Of a DNA stretch of 64,000 bases, positions 4,536-38,359 are shown in pieces. A model generated the notes under the pieces. That model was not told where the DNA came from, did no database searches, and was given only the letters and a program-made list of their open reading frames with translations. The position numbers were made by a program, and so were the translations under genes. The stretch comes from Planctomycetaceae bacterium (lineage in GTDB: Bacteria; Planctomycetota; Planctomycetia; Pirellulales; Thermoguttaceae), in contig WRKP01000003.1 in the NCBI GenBank assembly GCA_009778035.1, positions 26,132 to 90,131 of the forward strand. The letters run 5' to 3'. Position 1 is the first letter of the stretch; every line of letters starts with the position of its first letter.

Positions 4536-5738
4536 TTGAAATCGTCATTCTTTCCCTCCATCGTTTTGGGAGGGATTTTTAGCGTCCTGTTTTACGGTGC
4601 AATCCACAAAGGCTGGATTTCGCAGCCGCTCGTCCTACGCTATTTTGCCAATCATCCCATCGAATACGTGATTACCATCGCGTTTTTCGTCGGACTTGCA
4701 ATCCTGTGCGTTAAATATCTCTCGATTCTCCTGCAACGGCAACTCTTAAAAAGAAGTCCCATCCTGTCGCTGCAACCCGTGCCGATTCCCGTCGCCCAAG
4801 CAGCAAACGATCTCGATGCCGTCCTGCAACATGAGCAACAATACGGCACATCCCTGCTCTCCGAACGGCTTAAAGCGTTGCTGCATTCCCTTGGCCGAAA
4901 CAATTCGGCCAGCAATTTGGATGCCGAACTCCGCAATCAGGCCGACGATGCGGCATCCAAAACCGATGCGGATTATGGGCTCGTTCGCCTCATTCTTTGG
5001 TCGATTCCGATGATCGGGTTTCTCGGTACTGTCATTGGGATTACGGCGGCCCTCGATAATCTTGACCTCAATGCAATGAGCGAGTCGAGCAAAAAACTCT
5101 CGGAAGGCCTTGCAGTCGCGTTCGACACGACGGGACTCGCCATCGCCCTGGCCGTGCTGCTCTTTTTCGTGCAATTTCTTGTCCACCGCGAAGAATCCCG
5201 ACTGCTGACCGAAACTGACCGGCTGACCGAAGCCGAACTCGGTGGCCGATTTGAACAAAACGGTCCGCATAGGGAAAACGACGCTTTGGCAATGATTCAG
5301 GGAATGCTCGAAATGATTACGATTTCCATCGAGCAGGCGACGAAACGGCAAACGTACATTTGGGAGCAGAGTGCGGAGATGTTCAAAAGTTCTTTGTCGT
5401 CCGCTCTCAACGAAAATATGGAGCATCACGCCAAGATGTTGGTGCAGGCGGAGTCGGAACTGCTATCGCACGCGAACAAGACCGCTATGCAATTTGGCGA
5501 AGCGATTGCGAAGAGCGCATCCAGTCTGCTGTCTCTTCGGGACGAAACGGCCAAGCAGACGGAGGCGGTTCGGGAAATTTTGGGAGCGAACACGCAGTTG
5601 CTGCAACTGGAGGAACGGCTGCGGGAGAATTTATCGGTTTTGGCGTCGGTCGGCAACTTTGAGGAGACGGTCAACAGCCTTGCGGCGGCGATTCATTTAC
5701 TGAACAGCAATCGCCGAACGGAACTGCGAGCGGGATAG
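4536..5738 (+). CDS. MotA/TolQ/ExbB-family proton-channel protein with long C-terminal coiled-coil tail
   Basis: TTG start 5 nt after GGAGG. Channel core LILWSIPMIGFLGTVIGITAALDNL ... GLAVAFDTTGLAIALAVLLFFVQFLV. About 170 aa of helical/charged sequence follow the last TM. Confidence 0.8.
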   Translation: MKSSFFPSIVLGGIFSVLFYGAIHKGWISQPLVLRYFANHPIEYVITIAFFVGLAILCVKYLSILLQRQLLKRSPILSLQPVPIPVAQAANDLDAVLQHEQQYGTSLLSERLKALLHSLGRNNSASNLDAELRNQADDAASKTDADYGLVRLILWSIPMIGFLGTVIGITAALDNLDLNAMSESSKKLSEGLAVAFDTTGLAIALAVLLFFVQFLVHREESRLLTETDRLTEAELGGRFEQNGPHRENDALAMIQGMLEMITISIEQATKRQTYIWEQSAEMFKSSLSSALNENMEHHAKMLVQAESELLSHANKTAMQFGEAIAKSASSLLSLRDETAKQTEAVREILGANTQLLQLEERLRENLSVLASVGNFEETVNSLAAAIHLLNSNRRTELRAG

Positions 5739-7953: not shown

Positions 7954-7999
7954 CCGGGGGCTGACGCCCCCGGCTCGTGCGCTCACTCGCTCGTGCGCT
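7954..7999. repeat. Family B GC-hairpin element
   Basis: CCGGGGGCTGACGCCCCCGGCTCGTGCGCTCACTCGCTCGTGCGC, followed by a C8 run (8001-8008) immediately 3' of the flagellin stop codon. Confidence 0.85.
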
Positions 8000-8010: not shown

Positions 8011-11000
8011 CTATCGGCCCAGCAGACTCAACATATAGTTCGGAATCTGATTCGCAATGCCCAACGTGTTCATGTTCGCCTGCACCAATATCTGCGCACG
8101 CGTCATGTTCGACGTCTCCTCCGCAAAGTCCGTGTCGCGAATCTGACTCTCCGCCTCCGTTAAGGCTCCCAACGTGTCATTGAGCACATTGATATTCGTC
8201 TCCAATGTCGCCCGCTGCATCGTGCCCAATCGGCCACGTATCGACGTGATCGCCAATAACGACTCATCCACAATCCGAAATGCCTTGCCGGGATTGTCAA
8301 ACAAGTTTGCATCCCCGCCAGAACGAATCTGATTCAATACGCCCGATACACCGCCGAGTTGCACCGTGTTGATGCTGCGAATACCCATCGTGATTTGCTG
8401 CCGCGATACAACATCCGGCCCGACTTGGAATGTCGCACCGCCGCCCGCGATCGTAAAACCCGTCGAATAGCCCGGATACGTTCCCGCATGTTCGGAAAAT
8501 GTATAGGTCATCGACAACTGCGATGTGTTCAACGACACATTCAAGCCCGTCCCGACCGCACGGATCCCGTTAATCATCGCATCGACATCCTGTCCATACG
8601 ACCTTTCCTGGGCTTTTCCGTTGGCATCGGACACCGAAAATGTCGTCTGAGCACCCGGTTCCACAGGCAATGCCCGCACCTCGACATACTGATCGCTGCC
8701 GTAATCCATCGACCGGAATATCAAATAATAATCCGTGGCATCCGAACCGAAAAGCAGTTTTGCACCGTTCAATTCGCCTGGAGGTGCTGCTCCGCCCTTG
8801 GTAACAAGCGTATCATCGTCAGGATGAATCAAGCCCGTCCCGTTGCCGAGTTGCGAGATCTGAAACTTATTGCGGGTACGCGGGTCCGAGTTGATTAACT
8901 GCTGAATATCATTGGCCGTCGTGGTTCCGAAGTTGACATGCACCGTAATTTTCTTGGACGCTTCGTCATAAACCAGCCGCAATCCCCGTTCGACCGTGCT
9001 GTCCGGCGTAATCAGATTGCCGCAGTCATCCCGCAGCAAGCCGGAGTACACATCATCATCGCACGGATTGAGATCGGAACCATCAACCATATTATCCGCA
9101 AATCGGCCCGTCAGCGAAAGGTCGTTAATGTACTCAATCGTGAATCCGTCCCATTCCGGGCCGAGATTTCGGGCAAACAACTGGTAGGATGAATCAATTC
9201 CCCGTTGCGAGGTCATAATTCCCGTGGAATGTTTGGCGACGTAATGCTGTTGCTCGGCAATGTCATTCCAGCCGACGAACATAATGTCGTTGATAATCAA
9301 CTCATCGCAGTCGCCGTACGCAATCGTCGGGGCCAGGAAGCCGGTTCCGTAGGGGTCATCGCAATCATCCCAAACGGCTCCCGCCGGACGCACCACGCTT
9401 ACGCTGACATTGTCCACGAGTGCGGGATCAAGCGTATTCCACCACGCTTCCAAATCGGCCGCCGTCGTCGTTACGTTGCCCGCTTTGTCCGTTGCAAGAT
9501 GCACGGTAATCACCGCCGGCGAAATCAACCCGCCGTTGGTCAAAACCGGGCCGTCTTTCACGAAATCAATCACTTTCCCATCGGAGCCCTGTACCGTGTT
9601 GTAGGCTCTTGCCGTAAACATTCGGCTGACAACAGGGTCGTTGTTAATAAGCCGAACAACGTCTTCCTGCGTCGGATGGCTGTACACCTGGTTGTTTCCG
9701 GCGGGCGCACCGGGGCCAGCATTGGAATCCGCCAGCCAAACCGTTACCGTGCCGCCTTTGTGGCCGCCGGTGTTGCCGGTATTCGCTATCGTCCTAAATT
9801 GATTCGCGGACAAGCCGATACCGTCCAATTTCCCAAACCCGTCGTTGAGCGGGTCTTCCGCATAGGACAATTCCGCCTTGAAATCGACGCTGGAATTGTT
9901 AATTGCCGCGATAATATCATTCGTCGTCAGTTCGTTAATCCGCAGGCTGTCAATCGAAATTCGCAGTTGGCCGGTTGCGGAATCGAATCGCACCGTTACC
10001 GGGTCGGGACTGGTATGATTATCATCCAACCGCATGACCACGTCGATGTCGTTGAACAAATCGCCGCGCTCCGTTGCCGTAATGTAAAACGCACTGTTCG
10101 GCACCGGCAAGTTCGTGGCCGCATCTCGGAATACCGCTTGCGCGTAGGCAAAGGAACTTCCCGGATCGTATTCCACCCAGCCGTCCCTGCGGTCGGGCGC
10201 AAGCACGCCTTCGGCATCTTCGCCGACGCGTTTGAAGACGAATTGCACATCATCGTACTCCCCGCCCTGCTTGTTGGCCGTAATGGTCAAACTCGCACCG
10301 CTGTCCTGGGCCGTCAGTACCGCTTGCGATTGACCAATCACGGCTGGCACGGTCGTCCGGTCAAGATACAACTCGCTATTCGGCCCATCCACGACAAACC
10401 GGATGTTCGGCGAGTTGAATCCGCCCAAAAATTGCAATGCCGTCCCTTCGTTCGGGTTGCCGTAGTAGGCAACTTCCTCAAATGTACTCACGGGGAAGTA
10501 GCCGTTGTTTCCCGGTGCGAGTCGGGCGGTAATCACGGGTGGAAGCCCGCCGGCATCGTAGTATTTTCCTTCGGCATTTTCGGCGGCGAGTTCGGCAATC
10601 ATATCGGGACACATAATCCCGCCCCAGAATGCGGAGTTATTGAGTGCCGTGATGAGTTCGGCGGCCGTTGTAACGATCGCTCCGCCGGTAACGCCCCCGC
10701 CAAAGATATTCTCGAATGCCGTCTTGTTATGCACGAGCGTCAGGCCGTATTGGTCGTAAATTTCCTTATCCGACATATTGGGATAATCCAAATTGACCAC
10801 TCCGGTCGGCAGATTGGGGTGATTTTGGTATCCGACGAAGTTCCCCTGCCGGTCAATCCAATAATTGTACAGCCGCATGGCCCCGGTTCCATCATTGTCG
10901 ATGGTCGTGGTAACATTGAACAGGCTCGCTGCCCGCTCGCTGCCGCGGGACATGGCATGATCCAGGTTAAATATATTGGTAATGTCATTGGCCGTAATTT

Positions 11001-14000
11001 CCCGCCAGACCGCACCAGTATTGACCGAGTGATTCAGCGGCGGAGTCGGCGGCGGATTGTTGATGACGGAAAACGTTACCTGCCCTAGTTCAATCGCACT
11101 GGCGATGGCAGTGCTCGGAAGTCTTACATCTCCAGGACCACCTGTTCCGTCGTTCCAGCCGAGCAATCCCAGCCCAATCGGCTTGCCCGACCAGTTCCCG
11201 TTGAGGGCATCGAGCAACTCGTTGTAGGTCAAGTTTGCCGTATCGTCATACTGCACAACGAGCGTGTTTCCAACTCGGGAAATGGTCAGATCGCCCGGCG
11301 GATTGGTCGAAGCAACGGGGTCAAAATTGATGACCATCCCATCCCAACGCGGGTCGGAATGCGTAATCATCAAGTTTGCAATTTCTACAGCAACTGCACT
11401 TCCCGAATGACCAACAACCGCCGATTCGGACGATGCCAATCCGTCGATAGGCTTTGTTACGGTCGCCTCAATACCGTTGACATCCACCCAGCGCAGGTCA
11501 TCGCCCGCCGGTAACTGCGATGTCGGAATGGGACTGCCGTCGGGACGCGTCCACTGAGGCAGTTCAAGCCAAGTCGAATCATCCGTCGGGTTGAGGGGAT
11601 TTGCACTGCTGGCGGGATAAGCGGAATACAGAGCCCCGCGAGGATTGTTCAATGCGGCGAGAATCAGGTCATACGTCACCGGCGGCTGCGCCGTGCTGTT
11701 AATAATGACATTCACGGTTTTCCCGTCAAAGTTAATCACAATCGGCGGATGGTCTTCGGGATTTGTTGCCGACGGTGGGCTTGGGCCAGCGGCGACCGTC
11801 GTGAACTTAATATCGAGATTATCCCAGGACTTGTCGGTATGTTGCAAGTAAAGTCCGGTTGGGCCCTCGGGGCCTTGTATCGTACCGATGAGGTCGGATC
11901 GGCCGTCCAGCGAATGGGTGTAGGGGCGATAACTGCCTATCGTCGTCGAACTGACGAGCACCGTTGGGCGACCCGGAATATACTTGTCGCCCGCCGAATT
12001 CACGAACATCAACCCGCCCGCTTCCAGAATGTTTTCCGGTGTTACTCCAATGATGGGATCGTAGTTGGCGCCGATGCTGGTAGGATCGACAATGGTTGGG
12101 ATGTTCAGAGCGGCTGGCGTCGTTGTGTCCGCGTGATTGACAATCCGCCATCCGGCCCAGCCCGGCTGATTATCCATTCCATCAATACCGCCTCTATTTC
12201 CAGTCGGGTCGTTCAGCGCAGCGAGAATATCTTCATACCTTGTGTCGCTGTCGACTCGAATGGTAAGAATCCGGTTGCCGTCGTCGAATTCAATATCGAC
12301 GCTTCCGCCGGTGCGATCGCTTCGCTCAAAACGGAACGTAATCGCATCCCAATCATCGTTTGTATGTGCGAGGAACACATTATCGCCCATCGGGACACTC
12401 GTCCGTGCTTGGATTGTCCCGGAATTAATCGCGGGCAGTGTCCTGCTCGCAGAGGAACTCGTCCCAGTCGCGGGAACCGTGTTGAGCACGAACTGATTGC
12501 CTGGGGCTGTGGTGGGGAAGGTGAACGCCGCTGTTCCAGCGATAGCGGCTGGCCCCTGATAATCAACAAACGAAAATGGGTCAAATCGCGCTCCGCCGAC
12601 CGTTGCTCCGAAGCGGGTGTTCAGCGCATCGAGAACGTTTGCGTAGCTTGCCCCGGCTGCCACGGTAACATCGATTCGCATCGCGGAGTGATCGATATCG
12701 GCTGAATTTGTGGCACCGGCTGTAAAAACGATCGTGTATCCATTAAATTCAGGGCTGCTTTGGAGATACACGGGATTGGCATCGTCCGTGTGCATGTTCG
12801 TATTTGCCCGAAGCGGCGTCCCGTCAAAGACTTCTCCATCGGCTTTAATCCACGCAAATTCGGGCGGATCCACTCCCCTTCCAATTCCCGGCGGCAAGCC
12901 TGTCCAATTTTCAAGGGCGTTGAGAATATCGTCGTACGTCGCATGGTCATTGTACGAAACGGTAATCCTTCCGCTTCCGCTGGAATGGACATTCACGAAA
13001 GTCGTCGCCGGCGGTATCGACGTATGGACAAATTCAATCTGAATGTCATCCATTGCCGTGCTTCGGTGATGGAGGTACAAGGCCTCTCCGCTGATGCTTG
13101 TGAGCGGAGTGGTGCTTCTTCCGACGACGCCACCCATGGTTGAAGTGGCCAGCGACCTCGGTACGCCCGCGACAACTTCATCGCCGTTGGCATCCGACCA
13201 GTAAAAACTGCCGTAATGCGAAATGGATGCTTCCCTTGAAGCGGGCGGTTCTCCGTTTAAGGCACTCAGAATATCGTCGTAGGTTGCGTGTTCGCGAACA
13301 ACAACGTTTACCGTCTTGTTGGCGACATCGTACGCAACGTCTACCGGCGTTCCAACAATGGCGGGCGACTGAGCGAAATTGAACGTCCAGCCGTCCCAGT
13401 TGGCATCTGTGTGTGCCAGGTACATGCCATCGCCGACGGCTCTGAGCGTAACGCCGGGCTTTTCGGGAATGTCCGGCGTTTTGGGCATAAGGCCGTCCGG
13501 GGGCAACACGATGAAGAGCGACCCAGCCGCTCCGCCGCTTTGATGCGTGTTGCTCCTGACCGAATTCCCTGCCGCCGTGGCCGAAAGCGTGACGTCCGTC
13601 AGACTTTTCGCCCCAATGGAAGCATTTACCGAGAATCCATGGCCGGTATTGTTGTTCAGGAAGTTGAGGGCATCCTGGACATCGCGGAGTGTCGTATTTC
13701 CGTTGTTGTTATAGAAGATGGTGAGCGTTTTTCCGCCTGGAATGACGTTTCCGTAGGCGTCGAGTTGTTCGTTATATTGAGCGGAAGCAGCCCTTCCGCC
13801 GAGCGACGCATCGCCGGGACTGGCCGCCACGAATTGGATGGTAACATCATTGTAATCCGAACCCGTCGCGCGGGATTGAATGGAAAAGTATTCGTTCGCC
13901 GCCAAATTGCCGAATGCCAAGGCGGTATTGCTGACACCCATCGTGGCGTCAGACCCGGGAACGTAACCGAACAGTGCCGATGCCGCCTGGCCATGCTCGC

Positions 14001-15147
14001 TGTAGTAAGTGTAGGGCATGCCCGCCGTACCGGTCGGGTTGTCCGAAGAATAAAACCGGGGATCGGTCAGGGAACCATCCACGTAGTAGATGTTGGCATT
14101 GTTGTACTGGGCCCCTTCGATGTTGGCCTCGAATTTGAGGGCATTGTTGTCCCGAAGCGGTACGAGTTTGCCGTTGAGCATATACCAAGTCGTATCGACA
14201 TCATCGGCAAAGGCCGCCTGGTAGGCTTCCGTTTGCAGGTAAACCAAAATGTTGGCCGGCGCGCCGGGATAGAGCGGTTCTTCGTATTTGATTTGCACGC
14301 CTTCGGACGATCCCGGCAGGTATTTGAGTTGGACGTTGCCTTCGTTGAGGCCGGCGAGGCCCGCTTCGATGATAATGTCGTTATCCGGCCCGAGACTGCT
14401 GACGTAGAGCAGGCCTTTGAGGGCATCGGAGCCGACTTCGGCCACGACGCCGGTTCCATCGGAGCGTTTGTTGACGATTTCGGCAATTTCGGCAACGGTT
14501 GCACCTTTATCGAAGGTTTCCATGTCGAATCCGTAATTTCCGCCCCATTGCAGGACGATGGCCTCGGCCAGTGCGGGCTGGTTGTAGTACAGGGCGGCTT
14601 TTTCAGCGGCTTCGCGGACGTTGATGGTAACTTCGACCGGTTCCCGATTCGACCCGAAGGAGGCCTGATGAACGGACAAGCCCTGGAGGTTGTTGCGGTC
14701 GATGCCGACGAGGTTGAAATCGAGGGAGCCGTCGAGCAGTTTTTTGCCCATGAAGGTCGTTTGGGACGCAATCCGGTCGATGGCATCGAGGGATGCATCA
14801 ACCTGGAGTTGGTTGGCATAAATCATTTCGTGGCTCATCGTGCCGGTGCTGGCGGCTTCGGTGATAAGGCCCCGGATGTCATTGAGGAGATTGGTAACTT
14901 CGTTGAGGGCACTTTCCGCCGTGGCAATCATCATATTGGCCCGTTCGGTATTTCGGATGGCCATTTTGATCCCGGTGATGTCGGAGCGGAGCATTTCGCT
15001 GGCGATGAGACCGGCGGGATCGTCTTTACCGCTATTGATTTTGAACCCTGTGCTGAGTCGTTCCAGCGAGGTGGACAGGGCACTCATATTTTGATTGAGA
15101 TTTGCCCTTGCGACCATAGAAGGGACGTTGGTATAAATTCGTGTCAC
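8011..15147 (-). CDS. Giant flagellin (2,378 aa): canonical flagellin N- and C-terminal helical domains flanking a ~1,950-aa repetitive central region
   Basis: GTG start at 15147 preceded by AAGGAG (8-nt spacer). N-terminus MTRIYTNVPSMVARANLNQNMSALSTSLERLSTGFKINSGKDDPAGLIASEMLRSD. C-terminus RGRLGTMQRATLETNINVLNDTLGALTEAESQIRDTDFAEETSNMTRAQILVQANMNTLGIANQIPNYMLSLLGR. One uninterrupted ORF. Confidence 0.9.
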   Translation of the reverse strand: MTRIYTNVPSMVARANLNQNMSALSTSLERLSTGFKINSGKDDPAGLIASEMLRSDITGIKMAIRNTERANMMIATAESALNEVTNLLNDIRGLITEAASTGTMSHEMIYANQLQVDASLDAIDRIASQTTFMGKKLLDGSLDFNLVGIDRNNLQGLSVHQASFGSNREPVEVTINVREAAEKAALYYNQPALAEAIVLQWGGNYGFDMETFDKGATVAEIAEIVNKRSDGTGVVAEVGSDALKGLLYVSSLGPDNDIIIEAGLAGLNEGNVQLKYLPGSSEGVQIKYEEPLYPGAPANILVYLQTEAYQAAFADDVDTTWYMLNGKLVPLRDNNALKFEANIEGAQYNNANIYYVDGSLTDPRFYSSDNPTGTAGMPYTYYSEHGQAASALFGYVPGSDATMGVSNTALAFGNLAANEYFSIQSRATGSDYNDVTIQFVAASPGDASLGGRAASAQYNEQLDAYGNVIPGGKTLTIFYNNNGNTTLRDVQDALNFLNNNTGHGFSVNASIGAKSLTDVTLSATAAGNSVRSNTHQSGGAAGSLFIVLPPDGLMPKTPDIPEKPGVTLRAVGDGMYLAHTDANWDGWTFNFAQSPAIVGTPVDVAYDVANKTVNVVVREHATYDDILSALNGEPPASREASISHYGSFYWSDANGDEVVAGVPRSLATSTMGGVVGRSTTPLTSISGEALYLHHRSTAMDDIQIEFVHTSIPPATTFVNVHSSGSGRITVSYNDHATYDDILNALENWTGLPPGIGRGVDPPEFAWIKADGEVFDGTPLRANTNMHTDDANPVYLQSSPEFNGYTIVFTAGATNSADIDHSAMRIDVTVAAGASYANVLDALNTRFGATVGGARFDPFSFVDYQGPAAIAGTAAFTFPTTAPGNQFVLNTVPATGTSSSASRTLPAINSGTIQARTSVPMGDNVFLAHTNDDWDAITFRFERSDRTGGSVDIEFDDGNRILTIRVDSDTRYEDILAALNDPTGNRGGIDGMDNQPGWAGWRIVNHADTTTPAALNIPTIVDPTSIGANYDPIIGVTPENILEAGGLMFVNSAGDKYIPGRPTVLVSSTTIGSYRPYTHSLDGRSDLIGTIQGPEGPTGLYLQHTDKSWDNLDIKFTTVAAGPSPPSATNPEDHPPIVINFDGKTVNVIINSTAQPPVTYDLILAALNNPRGALYSAYPASSANPLNPTDDSTWLELPQWTRPDGSPIPTSQLPAGDDLRWVDVNGIEATVTKPIDGLASSESAVVGHSGSAVAVEIANLMITHSDPRWDGMVINFDPVASTNPPGDLTISRVGNTLVVQYDDTANLTYNELLDALNGNWSGKPIGLGLLGWNDGTGGPGDVRLPSTAIASAIELGQVTFSVINNPPPTPPLNHSVNTGAVWREITANDITNIFNLDHAMSRGSERAASLFNVTTTIDNDGTGAMRLYNYWIDRQGNFVGYQNHPNLPTGVVNLDYPNMSDKEIYDQYGLTLVHNKTAFENIFGGGVTGGAIVTTAAELITALNNSAFWGGIMCPDMIAELAAENAEGKYYDAGGLPPVITARLAPGNNGYFPVSTFEEVAYYGNPNEGTALQFLGGFNSPNIRFVVDGPNSELYLDRTTVPAVIGQSQAVLTAQDSGASLTITANKQGGEYDDVQFVFKRVGEDAEGVLAPDRRDGWVEYDPGSSFAYAQAVFRDAATNLPVPNSAFYITATERGDLFNDIDVVMRLDDNHTSPDPVTVRFDSATGQLRISIDSLRINELTTNDIIAAINNSSVDFKAELSYAEDPLNDGFGKLDGIGLSANQFRTIANTGNTGGHKGGTVTVWLADSNAGPGAPAGNNQVYSHPTQEDVVRLINNDPVVSRMFTARAYNTVQGSDGKVIDFVKDGPVLTNGGLISPAVITVHLATDKAGNVTTTAADLEAWWNTLDPALVDNVSVSVVRPAGAVWDDCDDPYGTGFLAPTIAYGDCDELIINDIMFVGWNDIAEQQHYVAKHSTGIMTSQRGIDSSYQLFARNLGPEWDGFTIEYINDLSLTGRFADNMVDGSDLNPCDDDVYSGLLRDDCGNLITPDSTVERGLRLVYDEASKKITVHVNFGTTTANDIQQLINSDPRTRNKFQISQLGNGTGLIHPDDDTLVTKGGAAPPGELNGAKLLFGSDATDYYLIFRSMDYGSDQYVEVRALPVEPGAQTTFSVSDANGKAQERSYGQDVDAMINGIRAVGTGLNVSLNTSQLSMTYTFSEHAGTYPGYSTGFTIAGGGATFQVGPDVVSRQQITMGIRSINTVQLGGVSGVLNQIRSGGDANLFDNPGKAFRIVDESLLAITSIRGRLGTMQRATLETNINVLNDTLGALTEAESQIRDTDFAEETSNMTRAQILVQANMNTLGIANQIPNYMLSLLGR

Positions 15148-15198
15148 GTTTCGATCTCCTTATCGTGTGGTGATGTTGTTTTTCGGTTAGCCGAGTGA

Positions 15199-15265
15199 GT
15201 TAGCCGCCCCGTCCTGCGTTGCGCATCGTGCGTCGAGCAGGGCTCGGCGGCCAACGGCGGCTAAC
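15199..15265. repeat. Imperfect 67-nt palindrome in the flagellin leader (family D-related)
   Basis: GTTAGCCGCC(CCGTCCTGC)...(GCAGGGCTCGG)...GGCGGCTAAC. The outer 10-bp arms are perfectly complementary. Shares the GTTAGCCGC core with 15428-15459 and 50429-50459. Confidence 0.6.
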
Positions 15266-15309
15266 ATTTGTACGGATTATGATTGATAAACCGGTATTCC
15301 GTAATTGGA

Positions 15310-15338
15310 TTATCGAAAGGATTAGACCGTAAATTTTA
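15310..15338 (-). promoter_or_regulatory. Possible sigma-28 (FliA)-type promoter for the flagellin gene
   Basis: Minus strand reads TAAAATTT-N13-TTCGATAA, against the consensus TAAAGTTT-N11-GCCGATAA. It lies ~165 nt upstream of the GTG start. The spacer is 2 nt longer than consensus. Confidence 0.3.
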
Positions 15339-15427
15339 GAAATGTTGGATATTTTGGTCTTGCAAGTTGTATGCGTTGTCCGGTTATACGCATTGTACCG
15401 GTTAGGTAAGATGGGCTAGTGCTGCCC

Positions 15428-15459: not shown

Positions 15460-15528
15460 ACAAAGAAAAAGAGCAGGGGCTCTTACGCAATGCCCCTGCA
15501 CGAGGATTGGATTCCAAGGATTACTACC

Positions 15529-20436: not shown

Positions 20437-21378
20437 TCACGTCCAGCCCAAGCGGATTTCGCCCTGACGGTTAGTGCTGCCAGGCCGTTGCAAACGCACT
20501 TCGCAACGAGGGCCGTTGCCTATGTAAAAACGGACAAGATCCAATAACTCCTGACGCCGCACTCCCTCTGAACTCGGCAAAAATTCCCGATACTGCGACA
20601 ATGTGAGATTTTCCAATCGCAACACAATACCCGCCGTTTGATTCCAAAATCGCCCGCCAAGCATTGCCGTTTCGCCCAAACGATGATTCGCCCTGCCCAA
20701 CTGCGTTCGGTCATGCTTTTCGACGACAAGCCATTGGCCATGAAATTCCTCAACCACCGCCTGCACGCCAAAACGTTCCGAAACGATTTTTTCCAGTCCC
20801 AGTGCCGTCTTCCGAACATTTGCAAACAGCACGGCATAGGGCAACAGCCGGGCACGTTGCGGTTGTTTTAGTTTTTCAGTCAGCAAACCGGCAACGGCAA
20901 ACAGGTATTCGGCAAACTCCGTCTCTGCCGGGTCGGTGGCCAATCCAGCACCGGGCCGCATCGGCTCCATCGCTCGATAAAAAAGCGAAATGAGCCGATG
21001 GTTAAATAAATCCAAAAAATCCTTCAGAGCGGTATCGCCGATTCGGCTGCGTTCCAAAATCAATTCGGTCATCGGCGGCGGCATCGGGCCGTGCGCTCCG
21101 GCCAGGCCGAGAAAGTTGATGGACAAACACGGTTTTTCATCATCCGTGATCGCTTGAATATCGCTGGCGGGAAAGTTTTGCGAAATATGCGAGGCGAACC
21201 GAAATTGCTCGCGATCAGGACTGGCCGCGGCGATGCTGGCCGTAGCGATTTCGGCCTGCGGCGATGATTCCGCGTGCAAAATACGGACGGCTTGCCAAAA
21301 GTCGAACGCCCAAGGTTCACGGCGGAATTGTTCGGCCAGACTCAAATTTTTGGCCGTATTCCGAAATTCGGTTTCCAT
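20437..21378 (-). CDS. tssG: Type VI secretion baseplate subunit TssG
   Basis: EPWAFDFWQAVRILH hallmark (FDFFQAVRLLE type). 313 aa. Overlaps the tssF 3' end by 37 nt, as in canonical clusters. Confidence 0.85.
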   Translation of the reverse strand: METEFRNTAKNLSLAEQFRREPWAFDFWQAVRILHAESSPQAEIATASIAAASPDREQFRFASHISQNFPASDIQAITDDEKPCLSINFLGLAGAHGPMPPPMTELILERSRIGDTALKDFLDLFNHRLISLFYRAMEPMRPGAGLATDPAETEFAEYLFAVAGLLTEKLKQPQRARLLPYAVLFANVRKTALGLEKIVSERFGVQAVVEEFHGQWLVVEKHDRTQLGRANHRLGETAMLGGRFWNQTAGIVLRLENLTLSQYREFLPSSEGVRRQELLDLVRFYIGNGPRCEVRLQRPGSTNRQGEIRLGWT

Positions 21379-23213
21379 AATTTATAAGGCTCTTCGCTGG
21401 TTGTATTTTTCCAAGTCATCTCCGTCGGCGTGTTCAGGTCGGCATACATTCGGAAAAATGTATTCATCACTTCGGCGAATAAATACGCACTGGAGCCGTT
21501 AAAAAACGATTCGTCAAGCGTCAACTCGATTCCGATGCCGTTTGCAAACCCCCGCCACGGGACATTGCCCATTCGCCGAACGATGGGTTTAATGTGAATA
21601 TCTTTCAGGCCTTGCAGTTGGCGTTGCATCGCCGTATCTTCCGGCTGCACGTACAACCGCAGTATTTCCCGAAGGGCTGCCGCCCCGTTTTCTCCTTCAA
21701 GCGAAAGGTAGTTCAGGGATAGATGCGAAATGAGCATCCATAGCGACCGTCCTCCCATTGCCGGCGTCTGCGAAAGCGTCGGTTTTGCGATCAAAAACAC
21801 TGCCGAGCAGGGGATTTCCGTTTCGCACTCAAGCCGGATCCCCGCCGGAGCCTCCGCGGCAAAATGCCGATTCGTGCAAAGCAGCCGGGCAAAGGCCGTT
21901 CGGGACTTGACGCGGTTGACCCGAAATTCAGAATCGACGAATCGTAGCCAAACATCCGTACCGGGTATCCCGCCCGACGCGGGTGTTCGTTCCATAACCC
22001 AGTACGATTTCGCGTTTTCTGGTTTTTCCGGCTCGGTATTGCGCGGCGTGAAAAACGGCTCCAGCGGAACCGTATCGCCGCGTTCCGGGTCAATGACCGA
22101 AACCGTTTCAATCGAATGAATTTCCGTGCTGGCATTGCGTCGGGCATCCCCCAACAGCCGGTATTCGCTCTTCGTTTCGTTCAAATCGACGGGCTCCGAA
22201 ATTTTTGCAAACAAATTCAGGGCTGGCGTTGCGTGAAGCCGAAACATATCCGGGGAGATGAATAATCCCTGCGAATCAATCGCAAGCGGGATGAGCACAT
22301 CGAGCCTGTTGAGGGGGCAATCTTGCGTCAACGGAGCGATGTGTTTTTGCAAGTTGATTTCAATATCCCAAAACAGGAATCGTTCGGGAAAAGCGAGGTA
22401 TTCCTGCAAAAGTTGGTATGCCGGAATTGCGTGTTGCCCTTTCGGCAAGACGAGTTCCTCCGGCAACAAACCGGCCGGGCGGAGCGCTTCCGAATGGAGC
22501 GGGATGGCGATCTTTTTCCAGTCATCATCGGGATTATCCAGTTCGATCCCCAATTTGTGCAGCAAGACTTTTTCGTAGACTTTATACGTTTCGAGCCGGT
22601 CGCCCTTCAGGAAAATCCGCAGTGTTTTAAGATTGCAATTTTGCAAAGGCACCGAATCGCTGGCCAATCCCAGCCGCAAAACGGAAATGGCACTGCGGCC
22701 TGTACCGGAAAAATGGTATTGGTTGGCCGGCTGGAAATCGGCCCTGACGATACGGATCGGATAAATCGTTACCGGCCAGGCGGTTTTCCATTTGATCGCA
22801 AGTTCATCCCCAGCGTGTTGGGATTCGTCGAATGCGTTGCATCCCAGCATCGTGCCTGCCGGAATTATTGCACCGTCGGCCAACTCGGAACGTTTGGCGT
22901 CGGGCTGGAATTCGACGATACCGAGCGAGGGAATCGGTGCGGTGAAATTCGGGTACAACGCACCGAGCAGGGCGGTTGAAATCTGCGGCAGCCGGGCATC
23001 GACGGAGTAACGGATTCGGCCTGCGAGCCAAGCGAAGGACTCGATTAAGCGTTCGGTGAAGGGGTCCGGCGAAACGTCTTCGGTAAGTTCGAGTTGGGCG
23101 GCAATTCGGGGGTGTTTTTGTGCAAATTCCGCACCGGACTTGCGGAGATACGCGAGTTCGCTTTGATAGTATTCGCGGAGCAGTTGTTCATTATCGTGCG
23201 TATTCATAGGCAA
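21342..23213 (-). CDS. tssF: Type VI secretion baseplate subunit TssF
   Basis: N-terminus LLREYYQSELAYLRKSGAEFAQKHPRIAAQL (TssF/ImpG signature). 623 aa. Confidence 0.9.
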   Translation of the reverse strand: MPMNTHDNEQLLREYYQSELAYLRKSGAEFAQKHPRIAAQLELTEDVSPDPFTERLIESFAWLAGRIRYSVDARLPQISTALLGALYPNFTAPIPSLGIVEFQPDAKRSELADGAIIPAGTMLGCNAFDESQHAGDELAIKWKTAWPVTIYPIRIVRADFQPANQYHFSGTGRSAISVLRLGLASDSVPLQNCNLKTLRIFLKGDRLETYKVYEKVLLHKLGIELDNPDDDWKKIAIPLHSEALRPAGLLPEELVLPKGQHAIPAYQLLQEYLAFPERFLFWDIEINLQKHIAPLTQDCPLNRLDVLIPLAIDSQGLFISPDMFRLHATPALNLFAKISEPVDLNETKSEYRLLGDARRNASTEIHSIETVSVIDPERGDTVPLEPFFTPRNTEPEKPENAKSYWVMERTPASGGIPGTDVWLRFVDSEFRVNRVKSRTAFARLLCTNRHFAAEAPAGIRLECETEIPCSAVFLIAKPTLSQTPAMGGRSLWMLISHLSLNYLSLEGENGAAALREILRLYVQPEDTAMQRQLQGLKDIHIKPIVRRMGNVPWRGFANGIGIELTLDESFFNGSSAYLFAEVMNTFFRMYADLNTPTEMTWKNTTSEEPYKLWKPNFGIRPKI

Positions 23214-23234
23214 TGTGAGGATTTTGGGGCGACG

Positions 23235-23735
23235 TCATTCCGAATAAAAACAGCCATCCTCGTCTTGTACAACTCCGAATGTTACTAAAAAGCCCTCGCC
23301 CAGTCCGTGGAGTTCCGCTTCGATCGAAATTCCTGCCCGAAACTTCACCGAAGCAATGTCGCGACCAAACACGTCGGTCGCACTGCGTATTCCCAAAAAA
23401 GGATTGGCGGAAAACTCATTCGCCGTGCCCGGCCGGTCTCGGAAAAAACGCTCCGGCGATGTGCCCGAAAGGTCAACCGAACGCACCGACACATTCTTTA
23501 GCCGCGGCTCGAATGCCGCAATCGTTCGTCCCAACTCGCCCGCAAGATCGGTGTCGTTTCCATCCGGCAAACCGTAATCGAGGACTGTCAATTCGGCATC
23601 GGGCTCGACATTCACACTGCGTCGGGTATTGAGCAGCCAAAGCAAATCCCGAAAGACGGACTCTCGGTATTGCTCCGGCGTGAGACTGCCGCTGCCGATG
23701 AAACGGTCTAATAATGATGGGGCGTTACCGGTCAT
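23235..23735 (-). CDS. tssE: Type VI secretion baseplate subunit TssE (gp25-like)
   Basis: SLLDRF...FRDLLWLLNTRR...VLDYGLPD...IAAFEPRL pattern of the GPW/gp25 family. 166 aa. Confidence 0.8.
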   Translation of the reverse strand: MTGNAPSLLDRFIGSGSLTPEQYRESVFRDLLWLLNTRRSVNVEPDAELTVLDYGLPDGNDTDLAGELGRTIAAFEPRLKNVSVRSVDLSGTSPERFFRDRPGTANEFSANPFLGIRSATDVFGRDIASVKFRAGISIEAELHGLGEGFLVTFGVVQDEDGCFYSE

Positions 23736-23768
23736 TGCTCTTTCTCCTACAGGGCTCCTACGAGGCCC

Positions 23769-24266
23769 CTACGAGGCCAACTTCCCTTGCGACAGGTCGT
23801 ATCCCGCAGCGGCATTGCCCGCGGAACCGCCTTCGTTCTTCTGCTTCATGTAGGCAATTTCAATCTTCGAATAGTTCATCGACACCGTCTCGCCCGGCAA
23901 ATCGCCGCCGCCCGATATGTTGTAACTCGAAATGACAACATTGCTCAACTTGATTTCCAAGTATGCCAACAGCGGTGCGCTGCCGTCCTGCGCCTCGCTC
24001 CGGCAAAGCGTCAGAACCACATTCGGGATCGTCTTTCCTTCCCAAAGCCTTTGGCAAATCGACGGCGAGGATATGTCAAAACGTTTGGAAAGCGACAGGT
24101 CTGAACATTGCGGTCTCGCGACCGTTCCGCCGCCTTCCGAACTCCGAAGGGCCGACGTCGGCTGCGAAAAGTCGAGCGAAAAGGAATAGATTTCGATCTG
24201 TTCCTCGTAGCCGGATACGGTACATTCGCCCTTAATGTCATCTATTTTCAGGAACATGCTTTGCAT
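23769..24266 (-). CDS. hcp: Type VI secretion tube protein Hcp (TssD)
   Basis: MQSMFLKIDDIKGECTVSGYEEQIEIYSFSLDFSQP is an Hcp1-family N-terminus. 165 aa. Confidence 0.85.
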   Translation of the reverse strand: MQSMFLKIDDIKGECTVSGYEEQIEIYSFSLDFSQPTSALRSSEGGGTVARPQCSDLSLSKRFDISSPSICQRLWEGKTIPNVVLTLCRSEAQDGSAPLLAYLEIKLSNVVISSYNISGGGDLPGETVSMNYSKIEIAYMKQKNEGGSAGNAAAGYDLSQGKLAS

Positions 24267-24320
24267 GATAATTGTCTCCTATTTGTTGTGTGTATTGTTT
24301 GTTTGTGAACGTTAACAGGG

Positions 24321-24340
24321 CCGCAACCGTACGGTTGCGG
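24321..24340 (-). other. Perfect 8-bp stem / 4-nt loop hairpin between tssBC and hcp
   Basis: CCGCAACC-GTAC-GGTTGCGG in the 104-nt intercistronic spacer. No U-run follows on the minus strand. Confidence 0.6.
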
Positions 24341-24370
24341 TACTGCTCGTGGTGGATTAAATGTTTGGCA

Positions 24371-26353
24371 TTATGCGGCCGGCGGCGGGAGTTCGGCAAC
24401 GAGCCGAATACTGACCGTCAACTCTTCCATCTGGAAATGCGGACGCAAAAATACGACTGCCTTGAATACGCCCGGCTTGCCCGGGACTTCGGCAACATCG
24501 ACGCGGGCTTCCCGGAGCGGAAACTTCGCTTTCACTTCCTGCGGAGCATCGTCGGAAAGAAGAACGTAATTGGATATCCAATTATTCAGATACGACGAAA
24601 CATTTTCTGCCGAAAGGAAACTGCCGACCTTATCCCGCATGATCGCTTTGATGTAGTGTGCAAACCGCGACGCATTGAGCAAATAGGGCAAAATGGCGGA
24701 AAGTCGGGCATTGGCATTGGCCGAATCCAGGTTATAAATCGGCGGTTTGTTCGTCGTTTGGCCTCCGAAAAAGACGGCGTAATCCGTTCCTTTGCAGTAC
24801 ACGAGGGGCAGGAAGCCCAGCGTCGAAAGTTCTTTTTCCCGTCTGTCCGTGATGGCAATTTCCGTGGGGCATTTGACGATGGTTTCGCCGTCATCGGTTC
24901 GGAATGCATGCACCGCCAAGCCGCGGACATCGCCGCCGCCTTCGAGACCGCGAATGGCAGCCGTCCAACGGTGTTTCGCGAAGGCTGCCGTGATTCGTTC
25001 GGCCAAGGCCCAACCGGCACTGCCCCAAAGGTATTTTTCGTGCAATTTGCCGTCAACGTCTTCCTGGAAATCGAATTCCTCAATCGGGCTGGTTGCCGGC
25101 CCGTAGGGCAAACGCATCAAAATATGCGGCAAACAGAACGTAACATAACGCGAATCATCGCTTTCCCGAAACGACCGCCATTTGATCAGTTCGGAACTCT
25201 CGAACAGTTTCGTCAAATCTCGGGGATTGGCAAGTTCCGTGAAACTTTCCATATCGAACATTTTCGGCGAGACGGGCAAAATGGCCGGTGCGTGCGCCGC
25301 GGCGGCGACTTCGGCAAGTTTCTCCAGCAATTTCATATCCTGCGGATGCCGACCAAACTCGAAATCGCAGAGCAAAGCACTGTACGGAGCACCACCGAAG
25401 GTCCCGTATTCCTCTTCGTACACTTTTTTGAACAGTTGGCTCTGGTCAAACTCGACCGCTTTCTCCAAATCGTCCTGGAGTTCTTTTCGGGAAACGTTAA
25501 ATACCCGTAATTTGAGCATTTCGCCGGTTTCCGTTTGCATCACGAGATAATGCAGGCCTCGCCATGCCGCTTCAAGACGCTGGAATTCGGGAGCGTGCAT
25601 GATTTCGTTTAATTGAGTCGAAAGCATCACGTCAATTTCCTTGATTCGCACCATAATCAAGGAAATGCAGTCCAGCGTCGCATTCGGGTCATCCGACAGT
25701 TTGACGTTCCCGGCAATCAGTTGCTCCGCCAACTCCGCAAGCATCTTTTTCGCGTAGGGGATTTGCGACGGGTCTTTAACCATTTTGGCGTCGGTCAAGA
25801 GCGATTCGACGAGACTGTCGGCTTCGATCGTTTCATCGGGTTCCGCATCCAACGCTCCCTTGGTTTCGGTCTGGAGTGCGGTCTGTTTGGCCGAATCTTG
25901 AAAAATGTCTTGAAACAGGGCATCAAGTTTGTCGTTTCCGTCAATTTTCGCCGTCAGGTCGATGAGGCGTTGCCTTGAATCGAACAGGCTGCTTAATTCG
26001 GGAACTTGCCGAACAACACGGATCGGCGTGAAGTCATCCATTGATTTGAAGGCCAACGAGACGGCCAACTTGCTGGCTTCGGCATCGGGCGTCAGTTTGC
26101 CGGCAACGGTCAATTCAAGATGCGGGCTGAAGGCCGACAGAACGTCGTTGAGGTTGTCCCTGTCGATGTTGACGAATTTGCGATCTTTCAGGGGCCCGAA
26201 GGGAGAGGCACGGTGCGAAGAGAAATCGCCGATAATTCCCAGCACGAAGGGGAGTTGTTTCATTACGATGGCGCCTCCGACTTCGACATCGTAGGTGATT
26301 TGTACTCGAGGGGGCCGAACTCGGCTCAACTTATGTTGGATGCTTTCTGGCAT
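24371..26353 (-). CDS. tssBC: Fused type VI secretion contractile sheath protein TssB-TssC (single 660-aa polypeptide)
   Basis: aa 1-~165 are TssB/VipA-like (MPESIQHKLSRVRPPRVQITYDVEVGGAIVMKQLPFVLGIIGDFS...DGNDKLDALFQDI). From aa ~167 the sequence is a full-length TssC/VipB (LNEIMHAPEFQRLEAAWRGLHYLV at aa ~250 ... FKAVVFLRPHFQMEELTVSIRLV). There is no stop codon or frame change between the parts. Confidence 0.9.
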   Translation of the reverse strand: MPESIQHKLSRVRPPRVQITYDVEVGGAIVMKQLPFVLGIIGDFSSHRASPFGPLKDRKFVNIDRDNLNDVLSAFSPHLELTVAGKLTPDAEASKLAVSLAFKSMDDFTPIRVVRQVPELSSLFDSRQRLIDLTAKIDGNDKLDALFQDIFQDSAKQTALQTETKGALDAEPDETIEADSLVESLLTDAKMVKDPSQIPYAKKMLAELAEQLIAGNVKLSDDPNATLDCISLIMVRIKEIDVMLSTQLNEIMHAPEFQRLEAAWRGLHYLVMQTETGEMLKLRVFNVSRKELQDDLEKAVEFDQSQLFKKVYEEEYGTFGGAPYSALLCDFEFGRHPQDMKLLEKLAEVAAAAHAPAILPVSPKMFDMESFTELANPRDLTKLFESSELIKWRSFRESDDSRYVTFCLPHILMRLPYGPATSPIEEFDFQEDVDGKLHEKYLWGSAGWALAERITAAFAKHRWTAAIRGLEGGGDVRGLAVHAFRTDDGETIVKCPTEIAITDRREKELSTLGFLPLVYCKGTDYAVFFGGQTTNKPPIYNLDSANANARLSAILPYLLNASRFAHYIKAIMRDKVGSFLSAENVSSYLNNWISNYVLLSDDAPQEVKAKFPLREARVDVAEVPGKPGVFKAVVFLRPHFQMEELTVSIRLVAELPPPAA

Positions 26354-36842: not shown

Positions 36843-36967
36843 GGTCGGTTCTTCTTACATGAGGGGTTTGCGGTGGGCGAAATGTCAACCGGTCTATGAG
36901 GTTATGGCAAATGGGAAGCGATTTGCGACAGGGAGCGGGGAGGATTTTTTTTTGCGTCAAATTAAAG

Positions 36968-37072
36968 AGCCGGGGGCGTCAGCCCGCGGGTTGGTTCGAC
37001 GTAGATTTGTTCGATAGACTCACCCGGGGGCTAACGCCCCCGGCTCTTGCGTGCACTTGCTCGTGCCCCCGG
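36968..37072. repeat. Family B composite element (two hairpins plus spacer, inverted orientation)
   Basis: AGCCGGGGGCGTCAGCCCGCGGG-TTGGTTCGACGTAGATTTGTTCGATAGACTCA-CCCGGGGGCTAACGCCCCCGGCTCTTGCG. The spacer is roughly the reverse complement of the spacers at 40052-40088 and 44838-44869. Confidence 0.85.
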
Positions 37073-37073
37073 G

Positions 37074-37101
37074 TTGACACCGCAAGCAAATATGGTAAAA
37101 A
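37074..37101 (+). promoter_or_regulatory. Possible sigma-70-type promoter of the DUF1559 gene
   Basis: Perfect TTGACA (37074-37079), a 16-nt spacer, then TGgTAAAAA. An AGGAG SD (37121-37125) and the ATG at 37134 follow. Confidence 0.4.
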
Positions 37102-37133
37102 GGGACCTTTCCAACCAAATAGGAGTATCAACC

Positions 37134-38359
37134 ATGCGAAATTATCGCCACAAAATGTTAACTTGGGGGGGGGGGGCAGTATAGGAAGGCACAAAACGCT
37201 CGCTTCCGCTCGCAATCACGCCTTCACCCTCGTCGAACTCCTCGTCGTTATTGCCATCATCGGCATGCTCGTCGCTCTTCTGCTTCCCGCCGTTCAGGCC
37301 GCTCGCGAAGCCGCCCGACGAATGCAATGCAGCAACCACATGAAACAAATCGGACTGGCCGTCCACAACTTTGAAAATACCCAAAGTGTTCTGCCGCCAT
37401 TGGTTATCAGCCGAGGCAGAACAAGCATTTTCTTCCTGATTTTGCCCTTCATGGAGCAAACGGCAGTTTACGAATCGCAAACCGGCGTCGCAGCACACGG
37501 TTGGGGCGAACGAAGAGATCCCATCACCTCCGTTTGGGTGATTAACTGGCCGGATCAGGCAACTGCAACCTCGTTCACGCCAAGCGATAGGATCGGCGGA
37601 CAGGGAAGCGATGAAGCAAGCCGAAGAGCCTGGATAGACGCTTTGGCAGCGATTTCCGTGTATGTTTGTCCGACACGCCGCCCGGCGGGAAGACTAACGA
37701 GCGGCGGAATGACCGACGATTGGTGTAACGGGACCCCTACCCGGGATTATGGCTGGGGGCCTGCAAGCGATTATGCCGCCGTATCGCTTTCGTTCAGGGA
37801 AGGCAGCGGAATGATGCAGCCCGCCGACCTGAATCGGGAAATCCATGAGGATTATATGCACGTGACGATGGAAAATACCAATGCCGTTTCATCGAGGTTT
37901 CGCGGCCCCTTCCGACCAGCAACCTTTGGCACATCGCCTCCGTCCGGTTCTGATATGAACTGGCTTGAAGAAATCGCAAGTTGGCGGGGCCGGGATTCGA
38001 TGGCTTGGTGGCGCGATGGGGCCTCCAATCAGTTAATCTTCGGAGAAAAGTATTACTCCAATGACCAGCAGTATTCGCATTTGAACGATTCGACTTGGCT
38101 CGGCATCTATTGGAATTCGCACCAAGGTGCTGCACGAAGTTTTCACGGGTCATGGTGGCCGATTGCACGATCGGGAGTGAAGGAAAACCTCTCGAACTGT
38201 TGGGAAGCCAGAAACCGATTCGGCAGTTGGCATCCGGGCGTTTGCCTGTTCCTGCTCGGCGATGGTTCTGTGCGTTCTATTTCGCACACGACGCCGACCA
38301 ACGATGTTTTGTTCCGGTTGGCACACGTGAATGACGCCCAAACGGTCAGTTTGCCGTAG
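37134..38359 (+). CDS. DUF1559 protein with type IV pilin-like N-terminal methylation/cleavage motif; the start region is out of frame with the body in this sequence because of a G12 tract
   Basis: Body frame: ...[56 protein letters not shown] ... GDGSVRSIS. The ATG at 37134 (with SD) stops after 16 codons ([16 protein letters not shown]). One extra G, or two fewer, joins it to the body. The only in-frame alternative start is TTG at 37163, which abuts the tract. Confidence 0.8.
37165..37176 (+). repeat. G12 homopolymeric tract
   Basis: acttGGGGGGGGGGGGcagt. By far the longest homopolymer in the window. Confidence 0.95.

Follow-up and report, generated by a model that had tools for sequence, protein, structure and literature searches.

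A 2,378-residue planctomycete flagellin whose outer region consists largely of copies of an undescribed ~85-residue domain

What fills the interior of a flagellin of 2,378 residues, and does a protein of this size still serve as a filament subunit? The question is raised by one open reading frame (ORF) in a 64,000-nt stretch of contig WRKP01000003.1 (Planctomycetaceae bacterium, assembly GCA_009778035.1, positions 26,132 to 90,131; hereafter the window). The outer region of this giant flagellin, ~2,100 residues, is largely made of ~11 copies of an undescribed ~85-aa domain, here termed the module. The protein probably serves a Pirellulales-type planctomycete as a true subunit of its flagellar filament, which would be very thick and acidic. 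Although very large, it belongs to the recognised class of giant flagellins and is not a new kind of system; its distinctive part is the array of an uncatalogued domain together with a lineage-specific insertion of six modules. All feature coordinates are collected in Table 1.

The initial annotation of the window had described an uninterrupted ORF with a GTG start and an AAGGAG Shine–Dalgarno (SD) sequence, and this holds on the sequence: the frame is open across all 2,378 codons and the SD lies 8 nt before the GTG. The database entry for this protein (P0001, 100% identical) has an internal ATG as its called start and a length of 2,368 aa, and the ortholog P0003 (2,266 aa) likewise begins at an internal ATG. 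A GTG is conserved 10 codons upstream of the called ATG (window 15118-15147(-); locus L001 9971-10000), and the SD together with the GTG-TRIYTNVP start is kept in two orthologous loci, L001 and L003. Starting at the GTG with its AAGGAG SD restores the canonical TRIYTNVPS... flagellin N-terminus. The flagellin-like termini proposed at the outset were recovered by profile search, where PF00669 scores 99 bits against a cut-off of 26.6 and PF00700 scores 58.5 bits against a cut-off of 23. The Pfam scan returned no further significant domain. The NCBIfam flagellin models score 120-162 bits (best 161.9) over both ends, and the FlgL model TIGR02550 scores 55 bits; all of these values fall under the full-length cut-offs because the termini alone align. 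In a sequence search of the PDB, solved flagellins likewise match the giant flagellin at its two ends only. A metalloprotease flagellin (flagellinolysin) was considered and rejected, since a motif search found no HExxH and the Pfam scan no peptidase family, in keeping with the earlier statement that this is not a proteolytic flagellin.

Between these ends, the core had been described as a single module repeated in series and since diverged, and the protein sequence bears this out. Segment-wise self-BLAST gives off-diagonal matches down to E 6.5e-14. A relaxed helix motif, T...[ILV][ILVAQ].[AL][ILVW]N, occurs eight times against 0.04 expected (2000 shuffles), and the motif [WF][DN]x[hydrophobic]x[ILVF]x[FY] (W-D-G-x-T-F-x-F type) occurs six times against 0.08 expected. 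The module plan comprises two to four β-strands and then a T-x-x-D-I-x-x-A-[IL]-N helix, and what had been listed as a separate second motif is the first strand pair of the module. A jackhmmer profile trained on the giant flagellin and its 120 listed homologs gave 11 matches in the protein (aa 369-495, 520-640, 671-747, 782-844, 876-980, 1089-1170, 1243-1320, 1376-1506, 1605-1647, 1658-1753 and 1971-2091) and none in 200 shuffles. The independent profile A1, a hidden Markov model (HMM) built from 100 diverse module instances, recovered nine full modules (34-66 bits for M2 to M7) and one half-module (aa 1599-1645); at aa 1376-1509 the helix part alone was matched, and M11 was matched in two separate pieces. 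Together, the two profiles support nine full modules and two partial or divergent ones, fewer than the 'at least 13' first proposed. That count had been built on 13 motif strings, and every nucleotide range given for them does translate to the motif quoted; ten of the sites are the C-terminal helix of a module, whereas those at aa 213-231, 1825-1844 and 1893-1909 lie outside modules. In addition to the modules, the outer region contains several other β-rich segments and, by orthology, one putative IN-type motif.

A single module, modelled by AlphaFold2 (AF2) from a 100-sequence alignment, is predicted to fold as β-β-β-α with a predicted local distance difference test (pLDDT) score of 82.4. The AF2 model of the conserved C-terminal half of the protein (aa 1385-2378; pLDDT 71.9, with 85-91 in M10) has a strand-strand-helix-strand unit at every motif site, two non-module sites included, and a β-rich domain directly before D1-C. 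Foldseek comparison with the PDB gave nothing significant for the single-module model (best E 0.3) or for the 994-aa C-terminal half (best E 0.65). When the module profile was compared with PDB sequences, the best match was a legume lectin at E 0.05, with FliD at 0.22, and none was significant; in searches of NCBIfam and Pfam no model covers the ~85-aa module. The giant flagellin has five cysteines. Two of these, Cys1929 and Cys1947 (9361-9363 and 9307-9309, (-)), form an outer-region pair 18 residues apart that is kept in 32-33 of 42 homologs. Flagellins do not usually have such a pair, which may point to a disulfide or to metal binding. Cys2029 and Cys2042 make up another pair, in an insert that is less widespread.

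The modules had been taken for the 'IN-type' repeat of flagellins, and this assignment did not survive comparison with the Flagellin_IN family. PF07196 has no match to the giant flagellin at E<=1, and it matches one of 100 module instances at E<=0.01. In six homologs scanned, PF07196 matched only at aa ~197-253, orthologous to the first motif site (6/6, 25-31 bits); the giant flagellin itself therefore appears to have one IN-type site, at aa ~197-250, which is placed by orthology alone and is below detection in this protein. When the module profile was aligned by hhalign to A2, the profile of the family's canonical IN region, the probability was 5.4% over 24 columns (a strand plus the T..IN helix). 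An HMM of A2 run on 521 real modules gave a median of 0.7 bits, against 0.3 for shuffled and 0.6 for reversed modules. Module and IN motif are alike in that each has a β-strand followed by a short helix ending in I/L-N, but the module is ~85 aa long and the IN motif 55, PF07196 does not recognise the module, and the similarity of the module profile to the family's own IN region is within chance. What the two have in common is thus a brief pattern of secondary structure, which does not demonstrate homology.

How the array grew can be read from the relatives. The family comprises at least 145 clusters at 90% identity, with lengths of 1,300-2,545 aa among the matches listed; Flagellin_N is found in all 120 clusters listed and Flagellin_C in 118. 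The source names given among these matches are all Planctomycetota (Planctomycetaceae, Thermoguttaceae, Pirellulaceae, Blastopirellula), and the giant flagellin belongs to the second-largest size class met in its family. P0003 (62% identity) and P0002 (64%) align with it full-length and collinearly; their lengths are 2,266 and 2,300 aa, and the ENA and JGI assemblies that contain them are independent. The ~1,450-1,570-aa relatives P0014, P0028 and P0033 instead align to aa 1-~555 and ~1385-2378 only, so that the M2-M7 region is an insertion specific to the subclade P0001-P0009, whose members carry 10 to 12 modules each. The ancestral family protein was already ~1,500 aa long, and six modules were later inserted between the N- and C-terminal parts of its outer region. 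The extra length of the giant flagellin stems from this ~825-aa insertion. Serial amplification, by which the initial annotation had explained the whole outer domain, accounts for part of the outer region only.

The size series extends to much shorter proteins. GTDB species representatives scanned with the whole giant flagellin gave no relative, and a scan with its conserved C-terminal 175 aa (alignment A5) gave 80 loci (L004-L083), all in Planctomycetota. The best match is only 73% identical, which suggests that the expanded P0001-P0009 subclade is absent from that collection. In 70 complete flagellin ORFs at these loci, module number tracks length (r=0.85). There are no modules at ~470 aa, one at ~580, two at ~690, three to four at ~900-940 and three to six at 1,470-1,860 aa, with 11 at ~2,300 aa at the upper end. 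The same D0/D1 sequence family includes other flagellins of planctomycetes, which measure ~680-740 aa in Rhodopirellula, 470-940 aa in Pirellulales and ~1,450-1,860 aa in Thermoguttaceae and termite-gut Planctomycetaceae and are 44-73% identical across the C-terminal 175 aa. Most of those above ~575 aa carry the same module, and in these flagellins an IN motif often follows D1. They differ in having 0-9 modules against 11, and the six-module insertion is found only in the P0001-P0009 subclade. Planctomycete flagellins thus form a growth series built largely from one ~85-aa domain.

The module is also found outside flagellins. Searched against 1.84 billion representative proteins, the A1 profile gave 1,406 matches at E<=1e-3, of which 97 also reach E<=1e-30. 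Among the top matches are proteins 2,000-7,278 aa long in which as many as 26 copies follow one another with a period of ~100-110 aa, and flagellin termini were found in none of the 29 new matches longer than 1,990 aa. The array proteins have source names such as 'beta strand repeat-containing protein' (Thermodesulfobacteriota), Opitutales hypothetical protein and Planctomycetaceae 'S8 family serine peptidase'. Those encoded outside the window and without flagellin termini include P0121, P0122, P0123, P0129, P0132, P0160 and P0178; several of these giants open with an LExRxLLSA-type motif, and a Pfam scan of three of them detected nothing. These giant tandem-repeat proteins, which resemble surface proteins, carry the very same module in tandem but, without flagellin termini, presumably leave the cell by another secretion route.

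The genomic setting of family members bears on their function. The giant flagellin gene has a BSP-type peptidase and a TPR protein upstream and a pseudouridine synthase downstream, and the genes for P0002 and P0003 are equally solitary, with different neighbours. Relatives of at least 1,470 aa, with the exception of P0116, have no flagellar neighbours within the flanks examined (up to 10 kb on each side). Orphan placement is accordingly a trait of the giant clade and not an anomaly of this window. The exception, P0116 (1,637 aa, nine modules), is encoded on a 10.2-Mb contig in the order flgA-flgH-flgI-flgJ-flgN-flgK-flgL-fliW-csrA-[flagellin]-cheR-TPR-fliD-fliS. This position within a canonical late-gene cluster indicates that the family is one of genuine filament flagellins. 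At locus L002 a separate 908-aa FlgL adjoins FlgK, and the family member comes after fliW-csrA. Planctomycete flagellins of 440-940 aa lie mostly within fliW-csrA or fliD-fliS clusters (loci L004-L083), and many of the shorter flagellins that share the C-terminal region of the giant flagellin are encoded in clusters of this kind.

Upstream of the gene lies a block of ~85 nt that the window shares almost unchanged with L001 and L003, despite their different flanking genes, and we infer that its TAAA-N19-CGATAA element is a sigma-28-like promoter. The terminator-like hairpin at the end of the preceding gene would set the flagellin gene apart as its own transcription unit. The leader RNA, whose predicted start is near 15303, is predicted to fold at -56.6 kcal/mol (z -4.4), with the SD AAGGAG in a hairpin loop closed by 4 bp. 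The corresponding stem of L003 is CAAU/AUUG in place of CGAU/AUCG; both sides are changed and the pairing is kept. A conserved ACGGAAUAC motif lies close to the predicted 5' end of the leader, and a search of the leader against Rfam gave no match. An SD within a hairpin loop is the usual form of a CsrA site. The SD hairpin and the ACGGAAUAC motif are possible CsrA sites on these features, a reading that, for the SD hairpin, fits the fliW-csrA pair beside the family member in L002. At the other end of the gene, the GC-rich hairpin past the stop codon is possibly a terminator, though it has no U-tract and was not called by the terminator scan.

Table 1. Features of the giant flagellin gene and protein, in window coordinates
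Feature	Position	Strand	Details
Terminator-like hairpin and T-run	15469..15484	(-)	end of upstream BSP-peptidase gene
Conserved upstream block, candidate flagellin promoter	15272..15356	(-)	~85 nt; TAAA (15339-15336), 19 nt, CGATAA (15315-15310)
Predicted 5' untranslated region	15148..15305	(-)	conserved 5' hairpin UACGGA…UCCGUA; SD hairpin CGAU-AAGGAG-AUCG
Giant flagellin ORF	8011..15147	(-)	2378 aa, 253 kDa, isoelectric point (pI) 4.4; GTG start, TAG stop
Flagellin_N, D0/D1 N-terminal helices	14725..15138	(-)	aa 4-141; PF00669, E 3.1e-28
Single putative Flagellin_IN-type motif, canonical position (by orthology)	14398..14559	(-)	aa ~197-250 (...GATVAEIAEIVNKRSDGTGVVAEV...); conserved in alignment A2
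Module M1	13663..13950	(-)	aa 400-495; A1 53 bits, jackhmmer independent E-value (i-E) 2e-15; ancestral N-terminal portion
Subclade-specific insertion, six tandem modules M2-M7	10996..13470	(-)	aa ~560-1384, ~825 aa; absent from P0014, P0028, P0033
Module M2	13228-13476	(-)	tandem, in six-module insertion
Module M3	12901-13140	(-)	tandem, in six-module insertion
Module M4	12613-12819	(-)	tandem, in six-module insertion
Module M5	12202-12441	(-)	tandem, in six-module insertion
Module M6	11638-11904	(-)	tandem, in six-module insertion
Module M7	11185-11409	(-)	tandem, in six-module insertion
Module M8	10621..11022	(-)	aa 1376-1509; divergent, large internal insertion; jackhmmer 18.7 bits, i-E 1e-5
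Half-module M9	10207..10353	(-)	aa 1599-1647, N-terminal strands only; A1 21.5 bits, profile positions 4-50
Module M10	9889..10176	(-)	aa 1658-1753 (…TTNDIIAAINN); jackhmmer 60 bits, A1 56 bits
Module M11	8875..9252	(-)	aa 1966-2091 (…TTANDIQQLIN), split by ~30-aa insert; jackhmmer 49.7 bits
Flagellin_C, D1/D0 C-terminal helices	8020..8274	(-)	aa 2292-2376; PF00700, E 8.4e-16
GC-rich hairpin CCGGGGGC-GTCA-GCCCCCGG	7954..7973	(-)	~40 nt past stop; read directly from sequence

As a filament subunit, the protein would be made from a gene transcribed alone from the conserved sigma-28-like promoter, with a ~155-nt leader in which the hairpin loop around the SD is a plausible site for CsrA, consistent with FliW/CsrA control. 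It would be exported unfolded via the flagellar type III apparatus and polymerise through D0/D1 beneath the FliD cap, so that D0/D1 build the core and the module array folds outside it as a string of independent small domains. The outcome would be a dense, acidic protein coat (pI 4.4) on a filament roughly 30-60 nm wide. A volume estimate, which assumes a 4.7 Å axial rise per subunit and a 60 Å core radius, puts the diameter at 30 nm or more if packing is complete. With packing fractions derived from the filaments of Salmonella (24 nm, 495 aa) and Bermanella (>=30 nm, 1,020 aa; PMC6248924), the same estimate rises to 48-61 nm. Such a coat would most likely stiffen or protect the filament, or make it adhesive, for work in viscous, particle-rich habitats. 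The nearest relatives come from the hindguts of soil- and humus-feeding termites; L006, for example, is the metagenome-assembled genome (MAG) Lab288P3bin146, from the same JGI project (Ga0123353) as P0003, where Lab288 denotes Labiotermes labralis (PMC7024585). Given this provenance, it is plausible that the protein would serve motility, protection or adhesion where the medium is viscous and rich in particles. A methyl-accepting chemotaxis protein of 785 aa is encoded at 51265-53622 (+) of the window and is an indirect hint of a motile organism.

Several points weigh against a bulk filament subunit, and to our knowledge no filament has ever been imaged for a flagellin this large. The largest outer domains solved by cryo-electron microscopy give a 24-nm filament (bioRxiv 10.1101/2024.03.18.585621), and here ~2,100 outer residues per subunit would need to pack at a 4.7 Å rise. 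The spacing of the sigma-28-like promoter is non-canonical, 2 nt over the textbook consensus. Neither Pfam, run on the main ORFs of at least 150 aa, nor tblastn with nine flagellar proteins found a flagellar gene in the window, so the earlier description of an orphan with no adjacent fliD, fliS, flaG or flgKL extends to the full 64 kb. Finally, several related MAGs (Ncb351_bin97, Rs511_bin15, EPI_MAG_00177 and EPI_MAG_00141) carry two giant flagellin loci, and the window copy could therefore be a minor or alternative subunit. These last two points lend themselves to a different explanation, in which the protein is a flagellin-derived export product: a minor, segment-specific or alternative flagellin, or a secreted or tip adhesin with a stalk of modules. 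Both the solitary gene, as in other members of at least 1,470 aa except P0116, and the pairs of giant loci speak for it. So do the use of the same module in adhesin-looking surface giants without flagellin termini and the cost of exporting and packing thousands of 253-kDa subunits. Against this, D0/D1 are as well conserved as in relatives inside flagellar clusters; P0116, with the same architecture, fills the single flagellin slot of a canonical late-gene cluster; and module number rises smoothly from 0 to 11 across planctomycete flagellins, the clustered ones included. On this balance, a product other than the bulk subunit is judged unlikely, though it deserves to be taken seriously.

Two further explanations carry very little weight. 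Relatives are labelled 'flagellin-like hook-associated protein FlgL' by JGI, a generic COG name, and FlgL models do match the protein weakly, both in favour of an FlgL-like hook-filament junction protein in place of a flagellin. The flagellin models nevertheless reach 120-162 bits against 55 for TIGR02550, Flagellin_C is present, and L002 has its separate FlgL beside FlgK, which together make an FlgL-like identity highly improbable. The source is a MAG and the ORF is repetitive at the protein level, and the frame might accordingly result from faulty assembly or belong to a decaying pseudogene, its length inflated as repeats collapsed or expanded. This concern was examined through DNA self-repeats. 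The best DNA-level repeat within the ORF is 32 nt at 66-78% identity and no tandem DNA array was found in it; with no long or near-identical repeats, repeat-driven misassembly is unlikely. The reading frame is moreover uninterrupted, the collinear 2,266- and 2,300-aa orthologs stem from independent assemblies, and an identical protein, P0001, exists in the database, so that an artefact is scarcely credible. The genuine filament subunit remains the preferred reading.

Other genes of the window were noted in passing. A MotA/TolQ/ExbB-family protein (4536-5738 (+), E 3.5e-15) has no obvious MotB or ExbD partner alongside and may belong either to a flagellar stator or to a channel of the ExbB type. 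Positions 20437-26353 hold a type VI secretion cluster. Within it, a 660-aa ORF (24371-26353 (-)) that matches T6SS_VipA over aa 10-164 and VipB and VipB_2 over aa 236-655 is an apparent TssB-TssC sheath fusion, and it adjoins Hcp, gp25-like TssE, TssF and TssG. DUF1559 proteins with N-terminal methylation (type IV pilin-like) motifs are encoded at 36896-38359 and 43614-44768 (+), and DUF1598 and DUF1573 proteins are also present; this is typical planctomycete gene content and agrees with the taxonomic placement of the flagellin family.

With respect to known systems, the initial annotation had presented giant flagellins as a rarity of marine gammaproteobacteria and this one as roughly twice the size of those reported. 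Neither statement stands. Giant flagellins occur in many phyla including Planctomycetes, with proteins of 1,281 and 1,190 aa in Blastopirellula marina (Thomson et al., 2018; PMC6248924). The 2017 UniProt table in the same work has a Desulfosporosinus entry of 1,965 aa and another of 2,628 aa that is assigned to the fungus Beauveria bassiana (taken here as bacterial contamination of that assembly), and relatives of the window protein themselves reach 2,545 aa. The giant flagellins of Bermanella marisrubri and Oleibacter marinus share with it canonical D0/D1 ends around a very large surface insert and a length above 1,000 aa. Some of the giants in that survey have tandemly duplicated insert domains, and their size goes with filaments of at least 30 nm (PMC6248924). 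Those studied experimentally are only ~1,000 aa long; the window protein, known here from its sequence, is 2.3 times longer. Whereas the Oceanospirillales giants carry DE/DX inserts, it carries the undescribed ~85-aa module 9-11 times. The sheath- and screw-forming flagellins (EHEC H7, Achromobacter and Sinorhizobium, PMC8931119; G. thiophilus D2-D5, bioRxiv 10.1101/2024.03.18.585621) offer an expected likeness, in that outer domains touch on the filament surface and alter its mechanics in viscous media. They differ in having 1-4 outer domains and filaments of at most 24 nm, against more than a dozen domains per subunit here. A 2024 survey of outer-domain folds names neither planctomycetes nor giant flagellins (bioRxiv 10.1101/2024.03.18.585621).

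In negative stain, Pirella (Blastopirellula) marina and species of Planctomyces have been reported to bear 'membranous sheaths' on their flagella (review PMC7175336), and the giant flagellins of B. marina make a protein coat a possible alternative explanation of these structures. A broader and decidedly tentative proposal, for which the odds are not good, is that a new, widespread extracellular domain has been accreted stepwise on planctomycete flagellins (0-12 copies), that in this lineage the filament is self-sheathing and 40-60 nm wide, and that the reported membranous sheaths are this protein coat in place of membrane. If this were true, the sharing of the module with surface-like giants would mean that domains pass between the flagellar repertoire and that of surface adhesins.

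Overall, these flagellins provide a natural size series, with a common D0/D1 scaffold that carries anything from no copy to 11-12 copies of a single type of module. The flagellar export channel is ~2 nm wide, and the series could throw light on the export of 250-kDa subunits, on how much surface mass a filament can carry, and on the role of thick filaments in viscous habitats such as termite hindguts. The module itself, an uncatalogued domain present in about 1,400 representative proteins, merits a family entry and a structure.

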